Positions 11,020 through 57,646 of a stretch of 64,000 nt of DNA are shown here, piece by piece. The translations under genes were made by a program, and so were the position numbers. The notes under the pieces are model-generated. The model ran no database searches and was not told where the DNA came from. It was given only the letters and a program-made list of their open reading frames with translations. Source of the DNA: Thermoflexia bacterium (lineage in GTDB: Bacteria; Chloroflexota; Anaerolineae; B4-G1; SLSP01); assembly GCA_011192175.1 (NCBI GenBank), contig DUEJ01000001.1, forward strand, positions 3,090 through 67,089. The letters are read 5' to 3'. Position 1 is the first letter of the stretch. Each line of letters starts with the position of its first letter.

Positions 11020-11964
11020 TCAGCGCCGGGGCGGTTGGATATCGATAGCTGCGCCCACATCGTAGGTATCGTACAGTAGGTTGATATCACCGGCGCCCGC
11101 GTAGTAGCCCTCGAAAGTACCGCTGCCGGTAAAGGTATAGCGCACCACGTAACCGCCTTGCAGGGCGACGTAGATGTCGCCGGCCCCGCTTACAGTTCCA
11201 CACTCAGCAGGCAGATTGTCGGCAGCGTAATGGTAATGTGCAGTTGCGATTCCGTTGATATTCTCCTCGCCGACGCGCGTGAAAGCGGGTACGTAAGGCA
11301 GGAAGTCTCCGACTTCGAAAGCTTGCTCCTCAAATTGAGCTGCGGCCACTTCCTCCGGCACCGGTAGCCACGGTTGATTCCCTATTTTTACCCAAGCCCG
11401 GTTGCCGATCCAGATAAATTGGAGCTGATTGGCAGGCAGATACTGCGCGTTCGGCCCTTCCGCACGCAACGTGATCTGGATGGCGGATTGCGGCGGATTG
11501 ACGTCTGCCTCGTAGCTGTACGTCCCGGCTGTTCCTTGCCCCGTAAATTGCACGCTGAGACGTTGGCGAAAGGTTCCCAGATTGCTCAATCCTCCCGCAG
11601 TGGGATCCAACGTGGCAATCATCAACTCTGGGATCTCTGCTGCGGCCAGCTCCAGGGGATCGCTGCCAGCGGGAATCTCGGTAGGAATCTCGACTGGCGC
11701 CTCTGGCGTCTCCGGTTCCACCGCGGCCGGCGCTACGGTAGGCAGCGATGGCGGAACTTCGGGGGGAGTAATGGTCGCTTCCACCTCTTCTGCGGGGGGC
11801 TGCTCCTCCAACGGGAGCGCGGTGGCGCTGGTCGCGGGAGTGCTTTCCGGGGTCTCTTCCGTCTCGGCCAGCGGGCCGTCGACGTCTACTTGACCACTCA
11901 CAGAACACGCCAAACTGCTAATCAAGAGTAAACTTATGATCGCGAAAACGATTTTGCTGCGCAT
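11020..11964 (-). CDS. secreted or lipoprotein-like protein with a Pro/Glu/Thr-rich linker, function unknown
   Basis: N-terminal signal peptide ending in SLAC. A long low-complexity P/E/T/A linker is followed by a globular C-terminal domain. Confidence 0.5.
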   Translation of the reverse strand: MRSKIVFAIISLLLISSLACSVSGQVDVDGPLAETEETPESTPATSATALPLEEQPPAEEVEATITPPEVPPSLPTVAPAAVEPETPEAPVEIPTEIPAGSDPLELAAAEIPELMIATLDPTAGGLSNLGTFRQRLSVQFTGQGTAGTYSYEADVNPPQSAIQITLRAEGPNAQYLPANQLQFIWIGNRAWVKIGNQPWLPVPEEVAAAQFEEQAFEVGDFLPYVPAFTRVGEENINGIATAHYHYAADNLPAECGTVSGAGDIYVALQGGYVVRYTFTGSGTFEGYYAGAGDINLLYDTYDVGAAIDIQPPRR

Positions 11965-12366: not shown

Positions 12367-12735
12367 TCAAGTAAAATATGAATTTACTCGCTGAATTAGG
12401 GTCAACGCTCTGACTGGTTTGGAGAGATAATCGTCACAGCCCGCCGCCAAAAATCGTTCGCGGTCCCCCACCATGGCAGACGCGGTTAAGGCGATTACCG
12501 GGATATTCTGGTAAGCCTCTGAGGCCTTGAGTCGCCCTACGATCTCAAGGCCATCTATACCAGGTAAGCTGATATCTAATAAGACCAGATCAGGAACCAC
12601 ATCTTTGATCATCTGTAAGCCCCCCAAACCATCTTCCGCTTCGTAGATTTGGTACCCCTGCGTGAGCAAGATTTTACGGACAATGCGGCGATTGTGGTAA
12701 TTATCCTCCACGTGGACAATGATGCGATTGTTCAT
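12367..12735 (-). CDS. single-domain response regulator (CheY-like receiver)
   Basis: DLVLLDISLPGIDG and a conserved Lys region. The gene lies 9 bp downstream of the TS-REC-REC gene. Confidence 0.8.
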   Translation of the reverse strand: MNNRIIVHVEDNYHNRRIVRKILLTQGYQIYEAEDGLGGLQMIKDVVPDLVLLDISLPGIDGLEIVGRLKASEAYQNIPVIALTASAMVGDRERFLAAGCDDYLSKPVRALTLIQRVNSYFT

Positions 12736-12744
12736 ATTCGTGAT

Positions 12745-14835
12745 TTACTCCAACAATAAATCTTCGACATAAGTCAGCAGCGCGGCGCGATTCAAAGTGC
12801 TCTTGGGCCAGACGGAATCCACCTGTGCGGATAAGAATTTTTTCTCTGCGATGGTCAACTCTTTGCCCGTGACCACCAATATGAGGAGATCAGCGCCAGC
12901 TGGCTGCGATTGTAGATCTTCGAGGAATTCTAATCCAGTTATATCGGGAAGAACTAAATCTAGCACCACCAACGCCGGCGGATTTTTCTTAATGGCCGCC
13001 CAGGCGTCATTGGCCGAATAGACTTCGGTGACAGCGAAACGCGGTTGAGATTCAAAAAGGCGCCCCATCAATCGCGCCTCCCAGACATTATCCTCGATTA
13101 CCAATATATGTTTATAGTCCCCTACGCCAAAAGACTTGACCAGTTTTTCGTGTTCTTTCAGCGGCGCTTGGTCAAGTAACCGGGCCAATTCATCAGGCTG
13201 GGCGCCTAAGATTCCCGTCACATGTCGGGCCAACTCCCGCGTACTGAAACTGCCTTTCTGCCAGACCGAATCAGTATAACGTTGTAGGTAGGCTTCCTCT
13301 TGCAACGTCAACGATTTTGCAGAGATGACGACAACCGGAATATCTTGGGTGCGTTCATCTGTTTTGAGCTCCGCGAGGATAGAGAACCCATCCATCTCTG
13401 GCAGAGTGAGATCCAGGAGCACCAAATCCGGCTGCCGTTGCTGTACCAGAGCTAGCCCATCCATGCCGTTATAGGCTTGGAAAACGCGATAGTTTTTATA
13501 GCTCTGCAATAGACGCCGGATTAGCCGGCTATCGTGAGGGTTATCGTCAATGACCACTAACGAGGTGATCTGCTCATCTAAGCGTTCTAAAGCCGCCGCC
13601 AAGCCCTCTTTGGGGATGGCGCCTGTCGCTGGCGACGAGGGTGTTTTTAGATGCAGTAAATAGCGGTCTTCTAGGGCGTGTTTCTCGGCGGTGAAGGTAT
13701 GCCCGGAGCAGTTGACCACCACACATTCCCCAGCCTGGATGTATCCCCGCGCGAGCAGCTTCTCCAGACCGGCAAAGGCGACGCTGGCCGCCGGCTCCAT
13801 GGAGATGCCTTCGGTGCGCGCTACCCAGCGCATGGCTCGAAAAGCCTCGCCATCACTTACCGAGACCATCGCGCCGCCATACTGATCCGCTGCGCGCTTG
13901 AGGATCTTGTAAGCCATCCCTGGCGCTCCGGTAGCCAGCACGGTGATTAAACTATCTGGCTGCACAGGCATAGCTGCGTCCAGATTCTGCTCCCACGCTT
14001 GCACCATCGGCGAACAACCGGCGGTCTGCACCACGCCGATCTTGGGAATACGATCAATGATCCCGGCCGCGTACAGCTCGGTAAACCCTTTGAGCACGCC
14101 CAAAGGCCCAATCCCGCCGGAGACGGCTTGTAAATACCAATCAGGGGCACGCCAACCTAGTTGCTCCACGATCTCGAAGGCGATGGTTTTCATGCTCTCT
14201 TTACAAGGAATGGCCTTGGCCCCGCGTTCTAGCGCCAGGTTATGCCGGGCGGCGAAGTCCGCGGCCACTTGTTTGGCTTGATCATAAGTGCCAGAGACTT
14301 TGATCACTTCAATGCCATAGAGCGCCAGCTCCCGCATTTTTTCTACGGGCACGCTGCTGGAGAGGAAAACCCAGAGTTTGATGCCCGCTCTCACCGTATA
14401 AGCCGCGTAGGCCGCCGCAGCGTTGCCGGTGGAAGCCATTACCACCTCAGCGATTCCCTGGTCATAGAGCGCGCTCACGGCAAAGGTCGCCTGCCGATCT
14501 TTGAAGGAGCCGGTCGGTTGTTGCCGCTCATCCTTGATCCAGATGCTGTCGTGCTGGAGCTCCCGTTCCAACCCGACGGCGCGCGTCAAAGGCGTCCAAC
14601 CTTCACCCAAAGTGAAGATATGGAAATCAGCTGGAAAAGGGAGTAATTCCCGATAACGCCAGAGCGTAGCCGGCCTTGTTTTGACCAGCGCCGGCCAATC
14701 AGCCGGCAGGGCCGCGAGATCATAAACTGCATCCATCCACCCCCCGCCGCATTCTGGACAGCTGGCGATGTCAGGATCGGGTGCCATCTCGTGACCACAG
14801 GCTAGACAACGGACTGCTTTCAGTAGAGTTCTCAT
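12745..14835 (-). CDS. threonine-synthase-like fold-type-II PLP enzyme with an N-terminal zinc ribbon, fused to two C-terminal receiver (REC) domains
   Basis: N-terminal CxxC...CPxCG ribbon. PLP-lysine motif GSFKDR. A glycine-rich loop (SGGIGPLG) is present. Two REC cassettes follow (LVVIDDNPHD...DLVLLDLTLPEMDG and ILVIEDNVWE...LVVLDLVLPDITG). Confidence 0.8.
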   Translation of the reverse strand: MRTLLKAVRCLACGHEMAPDPDIASCPECGGGWMDAVYDLAALPADWPALVKTRPATLWRYRELLPFPADFHIFTLGEGWTPLTRAVGLERELQHDSIWIKDERQQPTGSFKDRQATFAVSALYDQGIAEVVMASTGNAAAAYAAYTVRAGIKLWVFLSSSVPVEKMRELALYGIEVIKVSGTYDQAKQVAADFAARHNLALERGAKAIPCKESMKTIAFEIVEQLGWRAPDWYLQAVSGGIGPLGVLKGFTELYAAGIIDRIPKIGVVQTAGCSPMVQAWEQNLDAAMPVQPDSLITVLATGAPGMAYKILKRAADQYGGAMVSVSDGEAFRAMRWVARTEGISMEPAASVAFAGLEKLLARGYIQAGECVVVNCSGHTFTAEKHALEDRYLLHLKTPSSPATGAIPKEGLAAALERLDEQITSLVVIDDNPHDSRLIRRLLQSYKNYRVFQAYNGMDGLALVQQRQPDLVLLDLTLPEMDGFSILAELKTDERTQDIPVVVISAKSLTLQEEAYLQRYTDSVWQKGSFSTRELARHVTGILGAQPDELARLLDQAPLKEHEKLVKSFGVGDYKHILVIEDNVWEARLMGRLFESQPRFAVTEVYSANDAWAAIKKNPPALVVLDLVLPDITGLEFLEDLQSQPAGADLLILVVTGKELTIAEKKFLSAQVDSVWPKSTLNRAALLTYVEDLLLE

Positions 14836-14854: not shown

Positions 14855-15015
14855 AATTATCTTGCCGCCAAGACGCTAAGAAAATTCTATTTCCTGAAGG
14901 TTGATTTTCAAATCTTTGCGTCTTAGCGGTGAAATTCTTGGTTTTTGCAACAGACTCAAGTTTCAAATCTTGGTGATCTCTGGGCCTCTGCGATGAAGTT
15001 CTTACCTGGCGCTTC
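14855..15015. repeat. dispersed composite intergenic repeat family (copy B)
   Basis: Shares the gacgctaagaaaa...aatctttgcgtcttagcggtgaaat...tttttgcaacagactcaagtttcaaatct motifs with the copies at 1085-1275, 36290-36545 and 62095-62230. Confidence 0.7.
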
Positions 15016-15029
15016 CTCCATCAAATTTT

Positions 15030-16091
15030 TTACTCAATGCTCAACACGCTATAAGCTGTGATCGGATGGCTGAACCCCTTGTAATGGAACGGTGCAAGAG
15101 CGGCGGTCTCTATCTGCCCTTGTAGGTAGAGATTGGTCTCTTCATCAATCAATATCTGCCCCACAGAGGCATGTTCTTGCAAGCGTTTGGCTAAATTGGG
15201 GATGTTTCCGATGACCGTGTAATCCATGAATTGGTTGGTGCCCACATTTCCAACAATGGCTTCCCCCGTGCAGAGGCCAATGCCCAGCCCTAGTTCATGA
15301 AGCTCCGGGTACTCAGTTCTCAGGGCGGCGAAACTCTTTTGCATCATCCAGGCTGAGTGTACCGCGTTTTTGACACTATCCGCACTGGCGAGCGGAGCGC
15401 CGTAAAGGGCCATGATAGCATCCCCCAGATATTTATCTAGGGTGCCCTGATACGTAAAAACCAGCGGGGTTAAATACCCAAAAATCTTATTTAATATCAG
15501 AATAACCTCTCTGGCCTTCCTGCTCTCCGAAAACGGGGTAAAACCTCGAATATCAGCGAAAAGGACACTGACAACGCCCACTTCCCCGCCCAGTTTTAGA
15601 CGTTGTTCTGGATCATCTATGATCTGCAAGGCTACTTCTTTGGAAATATAACGCATCAAGATGCGTTCCAACAGGGCATTCTTAGCTTCTACTTCATCAT
15701 GGAGTTTTTTGATACGGAGCAGGGAACGAACACGCGCTAATAATTCCACGGCATGAAAGGGTTTGGTGAGGAAATCATCGGCCCCGGCTTCTAAGCCTCT
15801 GACCTTATCTTGTAACTCATGTAACGCGGTGAGCATCAAGATGGGGCAAAAGCAGTTTCCTGGGTCGGCGCGCAGCGTGCGCGCTACTTCGAATCCCGTC
15901 ATGCTCGGCATCATCGCATCTAATAGAATCAGATCAGGAGCTGTACGGTTCACTTTTTCCAACGCCTCAGGGCCAGAAAAGGCAGCGATAACCTCGTATC
16001 CTTCTCCGCGCAAGAGCGATTGCACCATCTCATTGCTCTGTCTATTATCATCAACCACCAAGACACGGGAAACATCACCTGAAGAACTCAT
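15030..16091 (-). CDS. response regulator with a class III adenylate/guanylate cyclase (CHD) output domain
   Basis: N-terminal REC (VLVVDDN...DLILLDAMMP). C-terminal cyclase motifs VLFADIRGFT, KYLGDAIMALYGAP and GIGLCTGEAIVGNVG. The start is placed at the ATG with RBS aggaaaagg. Confidence 0.85.
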   Translation of the reverse strand: MSSSGDVSRVLVVDDNRQSNEMVQSLLRGEGYEVIAAFSGPEALEKVNRTAPDLILLDAMMPSMTGFEVARTLRADPGNCFCPILMLTALHELQDKVRGLEAGADDFLTKPFHAVELLARVRSLLRIKKLHDEVEAKNALLERILMRYISKEVALQIIDDPEQRLKLGGEVGVVSVLFADIRGFTPFSESRKAREVILILNKIFGYLTPLVFTYQGTLDKYLGDAIMALYGAPLASADSVKNAVHSAWMMQKSFAALRTEYPELHELGLGIGLCTGEAIVGNVGTNQFMDYTVIGNIPNLAKRLQEHASVGQILIDEETNLYLQGQIETAALAPFHYKGFSHPITAYSVLSIE

Positions 16092-16235
16092 ATACACCTT
16101 TTCCTGTCTCAAGTCAAAAGTCGAAGGTCGCAAATTGGAGGGCGCTACTCAAACTACCGGCCTCGGCTGGTTGCTCTCATCAGACGCCCTCAGTCAGCGA
16201 CTTGAGACGGGTCCCAGCACAGCGGCAGGGAGGCT

Positions 16236-23888: not shown

Positions 23889-23960
23889 CGCCGACGTAGC
23901 TCAACGGATGAGCTTCCGCCTTGTAAGCGGAGGGGTGTGGGTTCGATTCCCACCGTCGGC
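23889..23960 (+). tRNA. tRNA-Thr (anticodon TGT)
   Basis: Cloverleaf: acceptor gccgacg/cgtcggc, T-arm gggttcgattccc, anticodon loop cttgtaa. Confidence 0.85.
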
Positions 23961-23966
23961 TTTTGG

Positions 23967-24049
23967 GGGGCAGATACCCTAGTGGACAAAGGGGGCTGAC
24001 TGTAAATCAGCTGGCAACGCCTTCGGTGGTTCGAATCCGCCTCTGCCCA
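23967..24049 (+). tRNA. tRNA-Tyr (anticodon GTA), class II with a long variable arm
   Basis: Acceptor gggcaga/tctgccc, anticodon loop ctgtaaa, long variable arm, T-arm ggttcgaatcc. Confidence 0.85.
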
Positions 24050-24060
24050 TCTTTTTTTAT

Positions 24061-24133
24061 GCCCATGTAGCTCAGTTGGTAGAGCACATTCTTGGTAAGA
24101 ATGGGGTCCTCGGTTCAAATCCGAGCATGGGCT
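24061..24133 (+). tRNA. tRNA-Thr (anticodon GGT)
   Basis: Acceptor gcccatg/catgggc, D-arm tagctcagttggtagagc, anticodon loop ttggtaa, T-arm ggttcaaatcc. Confidence 0.85.
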
Positions 24134-24182
24134 TGGGGAATTTGGCTCCTTCAGGAAATCTACAGAGTATATAGAGGTATCA

Positions 24183-24352
24183 TGGCTAAAAAGAAAAAAT
24201 CTGCTAGGCCCAGCATTACACTCGCGTGTACGGTGTGCAAGGAACAGAACTATCTGACCGAGAAGAATCGCCATAATGATCGTGGTCGTTTGGAATTAAA
24301 ACGGTATTGCTCACGCTGCCGACAGCATACTTTGCACCGCGAAACTAAATAG
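24183..24352 (+). CDS. rpmG: 50S ribosomal protein L33
   Basis: MAKKKK...CTVCKEQNY...[21 protein letters not shown] with a Cys4 zinc ribbon, 56 aa. RBS agaggt. The longer ORF-track start at 24092 overlaps the tRNA. Confidence 0.85.
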
Positions 24353-24365
24353 TTAGTTAGATCGT

Positions 24366-24439
24366 AGGCGAGTAGCTCAATTAGGGAGAGCAACGGTCTC
24401 CAAAACCGTAGGTTACGGGTTCAATTCCTGTCTCGCCTG
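24366..24439 (+). tRNA. tRNA-Trp (anticodon CCA)
   Basis: Acceptor aggcgag/ctcgcct, anticodon loop ctccaaa, T-arm gggttcaattcc. Confidence 0.85.
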
Positions 24440-24515
24440 CCTATTCACTGAGACACCGTCAATTAAAGACGGTGTCTCTATACTGTAAGGGGATTTGAGC
24501 GCACGGAGGATAGAG

Positions 24516-56306: not shown

Positions 56307-57380
56307 TTATTCCCCCAATGCCGCTAATTTGCGCCATTGCTCGTCAGCGGTCAGCGCCTCGATAAATTCCCTGATCTCACCTTCCATGATAGAAGGCAAG
56401 TCGTAGATAGATTTGCCGATACGATGATCGGTAACGCGATTCTGCGGGTAGTTATAGGTGCGAATCTTCTCGCTACGTTCGCCCGTACCTACTTGTGCTC
56501 GCCGAGCGGATCCAATGGCCTCTTCTTGTTCGCGTCGTTCAATCTCATAGAGCCGGGCGCGTAAGACGGTCATCGCTTGGAGCTTGTTTTGGGTCAGCGA
56601 GCGCTCACTTTCGCAAGTGACCACCATCCTGGTTGGTTTGTAGATGATGCGCACCGCCGTATCGTTCTTCTGCATGTGTTGACCACCTGGCCCCGAAGCG
56701 CCGTAGGTGCCAATCTCCAAATCGTTAGGATTGATATTGATTTCAACGGCCTCTACTTCTGGCAGCACTGCCACCGTGACAGTTGAGGTATGAATGCGCC
56801 CGCTGGACTCCGTGGTTGGCACTCGTTGAACGCGATGCACGCCGCTCTCATATTTTAGCTGCGAGAAAGCCCGTTTCCCTTCTACCCGGAAGATGACCTC
56901 CTTAAAACCACCAATCCCCGTGCGATTTTCACTGATAATCTGCAACCGCCAACCGCCTTGACGTTCAACGTAACGCGCATACATACGGAAGAGCTCTGCC
57001 GCGAATAACCCCGCTTCGTCTCCCCCAGCGCCAGCTCTGATCTCAATGATAACGTTTTTCTCATCACGGGGGTCTTTGGGGACCAATAATTGTTTAAGGC
57101 GTTCTCTTAGAGTTACTTTAGTTGCCGAGAGTTGCTTAATCTCCGCGCGGGCCATCTCCAACAGCTCGGCATCTTCGACCTCATCCAATAGTTTCTCAGT
57201 CTCGGCTAATTCTTCCCCCACAGCTCTGTAACGGCGGTATGTTTCCACCGTCTCCGCCAGATCAGAACGCTCTTTGGCATACTTGACCACCTTAGTATAA
57301 TCCTGAACGATCTCCGGATCGGCCAGCAGCTCTGCTAAGTTATCAAAGCGTGCTTCTAACGCATCTAAACGTTCTAACAT
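56307..57380 (-). CDS. prfA: peptide chain release factor 1
   Basis: GGQ motif (GASGPGGQHMQKNDTAVR) and the RF1-type tripeptide region VPTTESSGRIHTST. The start is placed at MLERLDALE (57380); the longer ORF-track start would run through the tRNA genes. Confidence 0.85.
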   Translation of the reverse strand: MLERLDALEARFDNLAELLADPEIVQDYTKVVKYAKERSDLAETVETYRRYRAVGEELAETEKLLDEVEDAELLEMARAEIKQLSATKVTLRERLKQLLVPKDPRDEKNVIIEIRAGAGGDEAGLFAAELFRMYARYVERQGGWRLQIISENRTGIGGFKEVIFRVEGKRAFSQLKYESGVHRVQRVPTTESSGRIHTSTVTVAVLPEVEAVEININPNDLEIGTYGASGPGGQHMQKNDTAVRIIYKPTRMVVTCESERSLTQNKLQAMTVLRARLYEIERREQEEAIGSARRAQVGTGERSEKIRTYNYPQNRVTDHRIGKSIYDLPSIMEGEIREFIEALTADEQWRKLAALGE

Positions 57381-57451
57381 TTCTACCCCCTGCTGATTAG
57401 CTGATATAGCAAACGGCCCGTAACTCACGGGCCGTAGCTTAGTTTCTCTGA

Positions 57452-57524
57452 TGGGCCTACCGGGATTTGAACCTGGAACCGACCGGTTATGAGCCGGTTG
57501 CTCTAACCGTTGAGCTATAGGCCC
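57452..57524 (-). tRNA. tRNA-Met (anticodon CAT; could be initiator, elongator or Ile2)
   Basis: Reverse complement gggcctatagctcaacggttagagcaaccggctcataaccggtcggttccaggttcaaatcccggtaggccca. Loop ctcataa. Confidence 0.8.
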
Positions 57525-57529
57525 TGACA

Positions 57530-57600
57530 AGCGGGCGACGGGAATCGAACCCGTATCAATGGCTTGGAAGGCCAAGGCGTTACCATTACACGACGCCCGC
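57530..57600 (-). tRNA. tRNA-Gly (anticodon TCC)
   Basis: Reverse complement gcgggcgtcgtgtaatggtaacgccttggccttccaagccattgatacgggttcgattcccgtcgcccgct. Loop cttccaa. It resembles the E. coli glyT type. Confidence 0.75.
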
Positions 57601-57646
57601 AACCAGGGCATTATACCATAAGCCTGTTAGTTAGACAATCGGCCAA

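Follow-up and report, generated by a model that had tools for sequence, protein, structure and literature searches.

How would a bacterium use an amino-acid enzyme of the threonine synthase (ThrC) type that carries two receivers of a two-component system on the same polypeptide? The question is raised by a gene in a stretch of 64,000 nucleotides from Thermoflexia bacterium, a member of the Chloroflexota (contig DUEJ01000001.1; the whole stretch is called the window here). The gene encodes a protein of 696 residues in which a zinc ribbon and a pyridoxal phosphate (PLP) enzyme domain are followed by two receiver (REC) domains. The original prediction, made from the letters of the window alone, described this combination, naming a Cys4 ribbon, an SFKDR lysine motif and a glycine-rich loop in the enzyme part and two complete receivers behind it. 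Translation, Pfam matches and conservation in 196 homologs bear the architecture out, and all three features of the enzyme part were found and are conserved across the homologs. On balance, we read the fusion as a response regulator whose output would be a ThrC-like enzyme, a neofunctionalised paralog with an N-terminal zinc ribbon, switched by phosphorylation.

The gene is one uninterrupted open reading frame (ORF) with an ATG start and neither an internal stop nor a frameshift. Homologs with the same architecture number more than 196, each an independent full-length sequence, and come from many assemblies, so that neither a missed stop nor a chimeric assembly can explain it, and the possibility that two ORFs had been read as one is ruled out. 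Pfam matches Response_reg twice (E 4e-34 for the whole fusion protein), and the set of residues for phosphorylation is complete in both receivers: D430, D431, D475, S505 and K527 in REC1 and E581, D582, D626, T656 and K678 in REC2. Both phospho-acceptor aspartates stand in the usual hydrophobic-hydrophobic-D context. The two receivers are 33% identical over 118 residues without a gap and thus represent a tandem duplication. In both, the usual Lys-Pro is replaced, and the sequence reads D-S-x-W-x-K followed by Gly or Ser (K-G, K-S); the Trp two residues before the receiver Lys is kept in 189/196 homologs in REC1 (W525) and in 169/192 in REC2 (W676). This motif appears to be a subfamily signature of both fused receivers.

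Conservation was assessed in an alignment of 196 unique full-length members, which share 49-91% identity with the query. The PLP lysine is present in alignment and invariant; K112, D113, R114, S135-T-G-N138, S239-G-G241 and G243 are each found in 196/196, the last four belonging to the glycine-rich loop S239-G-G-I-G-P244. S377, the counterpart of the ThrC Thr that contacts N1 of PLP, is kept in 195/196, and the ribbon cysteines in 183-194 of the 196. In REC1, D431 and D475 are invariant (196/196) and S505 and K527 are kept in 195/196 (one gap), so that the set D430/D431, D475, S505 and K527 is 99.5-100% retained. The corresponding set in REC2 (D/E581, D582, D626, T/S656 and K678) is kept at 90-99%, with D626 in 187/192, T/S656 in 188/192 and K678 in 191/192. 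Mean pairwise identity is highest in the PLP core (0.71, with 37% of columns at least 95% conserved), followed by REC1 (0.64; 25%), REC2 (0.50; 7%), the first linker, residues 396-423 (0.47; 18%), and the second linker, residues 546-573 (0.15; 0%). Since no other part of the protein is as conserved as the PLP domain, this domain is probably an active enzyme, and the pattern as a whole is what would be expected if enzyme and receivers both work, and not if the enzyme had decayed to a pseudoenzyme. Low-complexity insertions of 40-100 residues (for example SRERGRE repeats) occur in the PLP domain of four homologs (P0039, P0065, P0066, P0069), between helix 210-225 and strand 233-237 (alignment columns ~250-345), at what looks like a permissive surface loop.

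The helix that directly precedes REC1 is also well kept. G411 and E421, together with the adjacent Q422, show at least 97% conservation, and in an alignment of 29 sequences L416 and L419 do not vary. Shorter relatives of ~555 residues have a single REC1-like receiver, retain the preceding helix in the form EGLxAALEQLDE, and likewise have a gene for a single receiver next downstream. Because these one-receiver relatives keep both the REC1-like receiver and the linker helix, REC1 appears to be the ancestral regulatory unit.

An AlphaFold2 model built with the 29-sequence alignment has a mean predicted local distance difference test score (pLDDT) of 74.6 and a predicted template modelling score (pTM) of 0.53, with the three domains individually well formed. 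Both receivers are modelled as alternating beta-strands and helices in a receiver-like manner. The pLDDT falls below 50 in the linkers 378-422 and 546-572 and in the loops 205-211 and 293-303, the first of these loops being the one that replaces the ThrC NSxNPxR motif. In Foldseek searches the catalytic domain is nearest to ThrC (target TM-score 0.74-0.77), then to cysteate synthase/CapA2, serine dehydratases and TrpB, and the top Protein Data Bank (PDB) match for the receivers is PleD.

At the level of family models, sequence and fold alike, the catalytic domain is matched best by ThrC. With the zinc-ribbon ThrCs (PRK08197 / TIGR00260; 1UIM/1V7C, 2ZSJ, 2D1F, 6CGQ) the fusion shares the fold-type-II PLP fold, the SFKDR lysine, the STGN loop, the Ser/Thr that contacts N1 of PLP and, as in the PRK08197 type, the Cys4 ribbon; the best sequence matches reach E 1e-47. 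It is, however, only 31-36% identical to these enzymes, has 300 extra C-terminal residues that form the two receivers, and lies in a signalling context without amino-acid-biosynthesis (hom/thrB) neighbours. Its scores are below both equivalog thresholds (TIGR00260, 158.0 against a cut-off of 167.1; PRK08197, 259.1 against 303), and the control proteins P0145 and P0148 pass both models. The motifs N-S-V-N-P-x-R-x-E-G-Q-K-T and G-N-A-G-N are common to all four aligned solved bacterial ThrCs; in the fusion family, G-A-K-A-I-P-x-K-E-S-M-K-T takes the place of the first and S-G-G-I-G-P that of the second. Both replacements are highly conserved in the family and common to its nearest stand-alone relatives (39-49% identity). 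Within the first, G205 is kept in 100% of the 196 homologs, K207 in 85%, K212 in 89% (with R in a further 10%) and E213 in 98%.

The decisive control is co-occurrence. At least five related genomes or contigs have a canonical ThrC in addition to the fusion (L030, L032, L052, L060, L068). In L060 (Aggregatilinea sp.), a canonical ThrC of 427 residues with both ThrC motifs and a TIGR00260 score of 258.2 is encoded ~10 kb from the fusion and is only 31% identical to its catalytic domain. Further ThrC-like matches lie near the fusion gene in L030 and L052, a canonical ThrC is on the fusion-bearing contig of L032, and another is on a contig of 3,680,599 bp, the same size as that of L068, beside genes for prephenate dehydratase and cytidylate kinase. 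Canonical ThrC, under the NCBI name "threonine synthase", is common in Anaerolineae and Aggregatilineales; the 64 kb of the window hold no second ThrC. On the contig JAFGNU010000063.1, which carries both the fusion gene and a canonical thrC, an IS605 OrfB / TnpB (Cas12f-like) gene lies near the latter (L090, 7865-9046, minus strand). Because the fusion scores below the cut-offs, has the ThrC motifs replaced and co-exists with a canonical ThrC in the same genomes, we judge its enzyme to be a ThrC paralog and not the housekeeping threonine synthase, and O-phosphohomoserine is unlikely to be its physiological substrate. Thus, of the threonine-synthase-like enzyme first described, the ThrC lineage and the context of the PLP lysine stand, and identity with ThrC proper does not.

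The family is large. In a collection of 5.8 billion proteins, at least 120 full-length matches of ~700 residues were found at 58-91% identity, all with PALP and Response_reg, and these homologs came from metagenome-assembled genomes (MAGs) of Chloroflexota (Anaerolineae, Anaerolineales, Thermoflexales, Ardenticatenaceae). A scan of one genome per species confirmed the fusion gene at no fewer than 596 loci, each a species-level genome. Taxonomy and gene neighbourhoods were counted on 80 loci retrieved from these, and each neighbourhood ratio below is over the loci with enough flank. Two of the 80 are labelled only 'bacterium', and all others are Chloroflexota, covering Anaerolineales, Aggregatilineales, Caldilineales (including a Caldilinea aerophila MAG), Thermoflexales, Ardenticatenales and one MAG labelled Limnocylindria. 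Two MAGs have the fusion gene twice. The fusion family is thus almost entirely confined to Chloroflexota, mainly Anaerolineae, and is abundant in databases, where its members carry the automatic names "PLP-dependent enzyme", "pyridoxal-phosphate dependent enzyme" (NCBI) and "threonine synthase" (JGI).

On the minus strand of the window, the order of genes is histidine kinase, REC-cyclase, fusion gene and single receiver, followed by ~400 nucleotides of non-coding DNA (Table 1). The kinase is a very large membrane sensor which by Pfam has neither REC nor HPt and is non-hybrid. Its orthologs at two annotated relatives, L001 and L003, are larger, with 2537 and more than 3354 residues. At 44/56 loci, a kinase matching the C-terminus of that in the window is encoded no more than 2.5 kb upstream of the fusion, and one to three single-REC genes follow immediately downstream at 56/67. 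The REC-cyclase is upstream at only 13/72 loci, all close relatives including L001 and L003, and a GNAT gene comes after the REC genes at 23/61; on these counts, both were rejected as core partners. The core module is therefore kinase, PLP-REC-REC and REC. The loci L001 and L003 (61-63% identity) have the gene order of the window plus a second single receiver and a GNAT acetyltransferase of ~300 residues (12899-13813 and 12879-13769, respectively), which is absent from the window. The cyclase ORF of the window is listed from a TTG codon, and an internal ATG (M15, MSSSGD...) just before its receiver looks more plausible as the start. At locus L025, an apparent kinase-enzyme fusion (an ORF of 1695 residues) was rejected, since the absence of any Pfam match upstream of the PALP domain indicates an over-extended ORF.

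Because the receivers keep their phospho-acceptor sets, a kinase is the usual neighbour and conservation peaks in the PLP domain, phosphorylation control of a PLP-dependent elimination or replacement, as the original prediction had proposed, seems to us the best reading of these genes, with the reservation about O-phosphohomoserine made above. The neighbouring kinase would phosphorylate REC1, which is both ancestral and the better conserved of the two receivers, and probably REC2 as well. We infer that a conformational or dimerisation change in the receivers would be relayed through the linker helix 409-421 to the PLP domain, which is probably dimeric, and would switch its activity. The enzyme may catalyse a beta/gamma elimination or replacement in the manner of ThrC, acting on an amino acid whose side chain bears an anionic group, though not the conversion of O-phosphohomoserine to threonine; beside this proposal we note the conserved lysines 207 and 212 retained in the replacement loop. 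The single-REC proteins could compete as phosphate acceptors or act as sinks and, in close relatives including the window, the REC-cyclase would be a parallel output of the same kinase.

Several observations weigh against this picture. It is unusual for a response regulator to have its receivers C-terminal to an enzyme, and the AlphaFold2 model (pTM 0.53, without an inter-domain error estimate) does not fix with confidence where the receivers lie with respect to the active site. About one fifth of the loci have no adjacent kinase, and an orphan subgroup (L034, L037, L053, L068) has unrelated neighbours (HEAT-repeat, NUDIX, acyl-CoA dehydrogenase, TPR and LuxR-type regulator genes). No pathway partner was found in the neighbourhoods of the ~80 loci, the orphan subgroup included, and the stand-alone relatives P0125, P0129 and P0136, which lie on short contigs or in housekeeping context, give no functional clue. 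With regard to the substrate, we assign the binding of the substrate phosphate in T. thermophilus ThrC to T88, N154, S155, R160 and N188, the last four of which lie in the two conserved ThrC motifs. More distant zinc-ribbon ThrCs with scores above the thresholds are themselves variable at some of these positions; because of this variation, motif replacement alone is suggestive rather than decisive as an argument against ThrC identity.

The PLP domain could also be the input of the circuit instead of its output. It would then bind or slowly turn over an amino-acid metabolite and modulate the phosphorylation or dephosphorylation of its own receivers, acting as a checkpoint or phosphate sink in a branched network from one kinase to multiple receivers. 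Such an arrangement would account for receivers at the C-terminus, as in hybrid sensors and unlike classical response regulators, and for the high number of receivers at the locus, where the REC-cyclase, the pair of fused RECs and one to three single RECs lie together as is typical of branched or sink circuits; it would also fit neighbourhoods in which no pathway partner for an enzymatic product recurs. We nevertheless consider it rather unlikely. A large array of sensor domains (dCache, 3 GAF, 2 PAS) is already present in the adjacent kinase, the invariance of the catalytic and PLP residues in the most conserved part of the protein exceeds the apparent need of ligand binding alone, and we know of no fold-type-II PLP sensor that controls a receiver.

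Somewhat more speculative still is a broader proposal in which the ThrC-like domain is a signalling device. It might be a PLP-based sensor of a (phospho-)amino acid that gates phosphate flow through the two receivers, or a phosphorylation-switched enzyme that makes or destroys an amino-acid-derived signal alongside the cyclic nucleotide of the REC-cyclase. Were this true, the fusion would add a new class to the inputs or outputs of two-component systems, one specific to Chloroflexota of the Anaerolineae type.

That the fusion is instead the genuine threonine synthase of this lineage, with receivers added for two-component control of threonine synthesis, we hold to be very improbable. The JGI label of the homologs, the best matches in sequence and fold, and the ThrC-like PLP lysine, STGN loop and Ser contacting N1 of PLP all speak for it, but the protein scores under both curated ThrC cut-offs and has other sequences in place of NSxNPxR and GNAGN; some MAGs moreover have two copies of the fusion, its neighbours are signalling genes and not hom/thrB, and it is disfavoured above all because canonical ThrC is a separate gene in related genomes (L060, L030, L052, L032, L068). 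Least credible of all is a catalytically dead PLP domain serving as a scaffold or dimerisation module in what would be only a tandem-receiver adaptor: such adaptors exist, one PleD receiver serves dimerisation and the substrate loops 205-211 and 293-303 are modelled at low confidence, but K112, D113, R114, STGN, SGGxGP and S377-G-H are essentially invariant across the 196 sequences, and the share of PALP columns with 95% conservation or more runs counter to the decay that a pseudoenzyme should show.

For the response regulator with an enzymatic output that we favour, three known systems offer comparisons. PleD (REC-REC-GGDEF) likewise joins tandem CheY-like receivers to an enzyme domain in a single chain and has a cognate kinase close by. 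The fusion has the reversed order, with the enzyme N-terminal, and both of its receivers keep the phospho-acceptor set, in contrast to PleD, in which the second receiver is an adaptor. IlvA (ilvA_1Cterm, ilvA_2Cterm) has a fold-type-II PLP domain with one or two C-terminal regulatory domains, a design that the fusion family parallels in its one-REC (~555 residues) and two-REC (~700 residues) forms. The regulatory domains of IlvA bind Ile/Val, whereas those of the fusion are phosphorylatable receivers, and with catalytic domains only distantly related (E ~1e-9) the likeness is an analogy of design and not family membership. Cysteate synthase / CapA2 (TIGR03844, PDB 9K3C) is a precedent for a ThrC-derived zinc-ribbon enzyme with new beta-replacement chemistry on phospho-amino acids. 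The fusion matches it in Foldseek (E 2e-18) and scores 122.1 bits with TIGR03844, far below the cut-off of 324.9; cysteate synthase has no receivers, and the likeness is no evidence that phosphoserine is the substrate of the fusion.

Enzymatic outputs of response regulators are known already, as are ThrC paralogs that have acquired new chemistry. What would be new here, as far as we could find, is a PLP amino-acid enzyme as the output of a response regulator, switched by aspartyl phosphorylation; the full-text literature that we searched, which leaves most subscription journals outside, contained no description of such an output or of the fusion itself. The first impression of an undescribed architecture therefore stands within that literature, and any suggestion of rarity does not, given the hundreds of species-level genomes that carry it under generic names. 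Because the family is large and conserved, in a phylum that is abundant but little studied, and the module of kinase, enzyme-REC-REC and REC recurs, the fusion likely marks a widespread link in Anaerolineae between environmental sensing and amino-acid or small-molecule metabolism. The automatic annotation "threonine synthase" can mislead metabolic reconstructions of Chloroflexota MAGs, in which canonical ThrC is a separate gene.

Table 1. Coordinates in the window of the fusion gene, its parts and its neighbours.
Feature	Position	Strand	Basis or remark
Whole gene: Zn-ribbon / PALP / REC / REC protein, 696 aa	12745..14835	(-)	Stop codon 12745-12747; full-length homologs 49-91% identity
N-terminal Cys4 zinc ribbon, aa 8-31 (C10, C13, C26, C29)	14743..14814	(-)	Weak Prok-RING_1 match, E 0.001
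Fold-type-II PLP domain (PALP), aa 75-376, probable ThrC-like paralog	13708..14613	(-)	Pfam E 8e-67; best solved relatives are ThrC structures
Codon of K112, PLP Schiff-base lysine in S110-F-K112-D-R	14500..14502	(-)	Translation; aligns with K61 of T. thermophilus ThrC
Loop G205-AKAIPCK-E213, in place of ThrC motif N-S-x-N-P-x-R	14197..14223	(-)	Alignments to four solved ThrCs
Linker helix aa 409-421, EGLAAALERLDEQ, directly before REC1	13573..13611	(-)	Predicted helix H409-421
REC1, aa 424-545, phospho-acceptor D475 (codon 13411-13413)	13201..13566	(-)	Pfam; LLDLT translation
REC2, aa 574-696, phospho-acceptor D626 (codon 12958-12960)	12748..13116	(-)	Pfam; VLDLV translation
D-S-x-W-x-K signature, REC1 aa 525-528 / REC2 aa 676-679	~13252-13263 / ~12799-12810		
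Sensor histidine kinase, 1700 aa	16286..21388	(-)	Pfam: dCache, HAMP, 3 GAF, 2 PAS, HisKA, HATPase_c
REC-class III nucleotide cyclase, 367 aa as called	15030..16133	(-)	Pfam: Response_reg + Guanylate_cyc; upstream of fusion
Single-domain receiver gene, 122 aa, downstream	12367..12735	(-)	Starts 9 nt past fusion stop
Sigma-70-like promoter match TTGAAA-16-TAGAAT	14884..14911	(-)	~50 nt upstream of start; 10/12 consensus

The sigma-70-like match upstream of the fusion gene is weak evidence for a promoter, since the region contains 10 such sites against 6.5 +/- 2.9 in shuffled sequences. Downstream of the signalling cluster, past the 400-nucleotide gap, a gene at 11020-11964 (-) encodes a protein of 314 residues with an N-terminal hydrophobic segment and a low-complexity region rich in Pro, Glu, Thr and Ala, and without a Pfam match. 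Elsewhere in the window, a cluster of tRNA genes (Thr-TGT, Tyr-GTA, Thr-GGT, Trp-CCA) occupies 23890-24441 (+) and is followed, at ~24-28 kb, by DNA of lower G+C content (0.48-0.49) with a strong positive GC skew. Genes for tRNA-Met and tRNA-Gly at 57452-57600 (-) fall within a listed ORF of 434 residues (56307..57611, minus strand), which has therefore probably been drawn too long at its 5' end.

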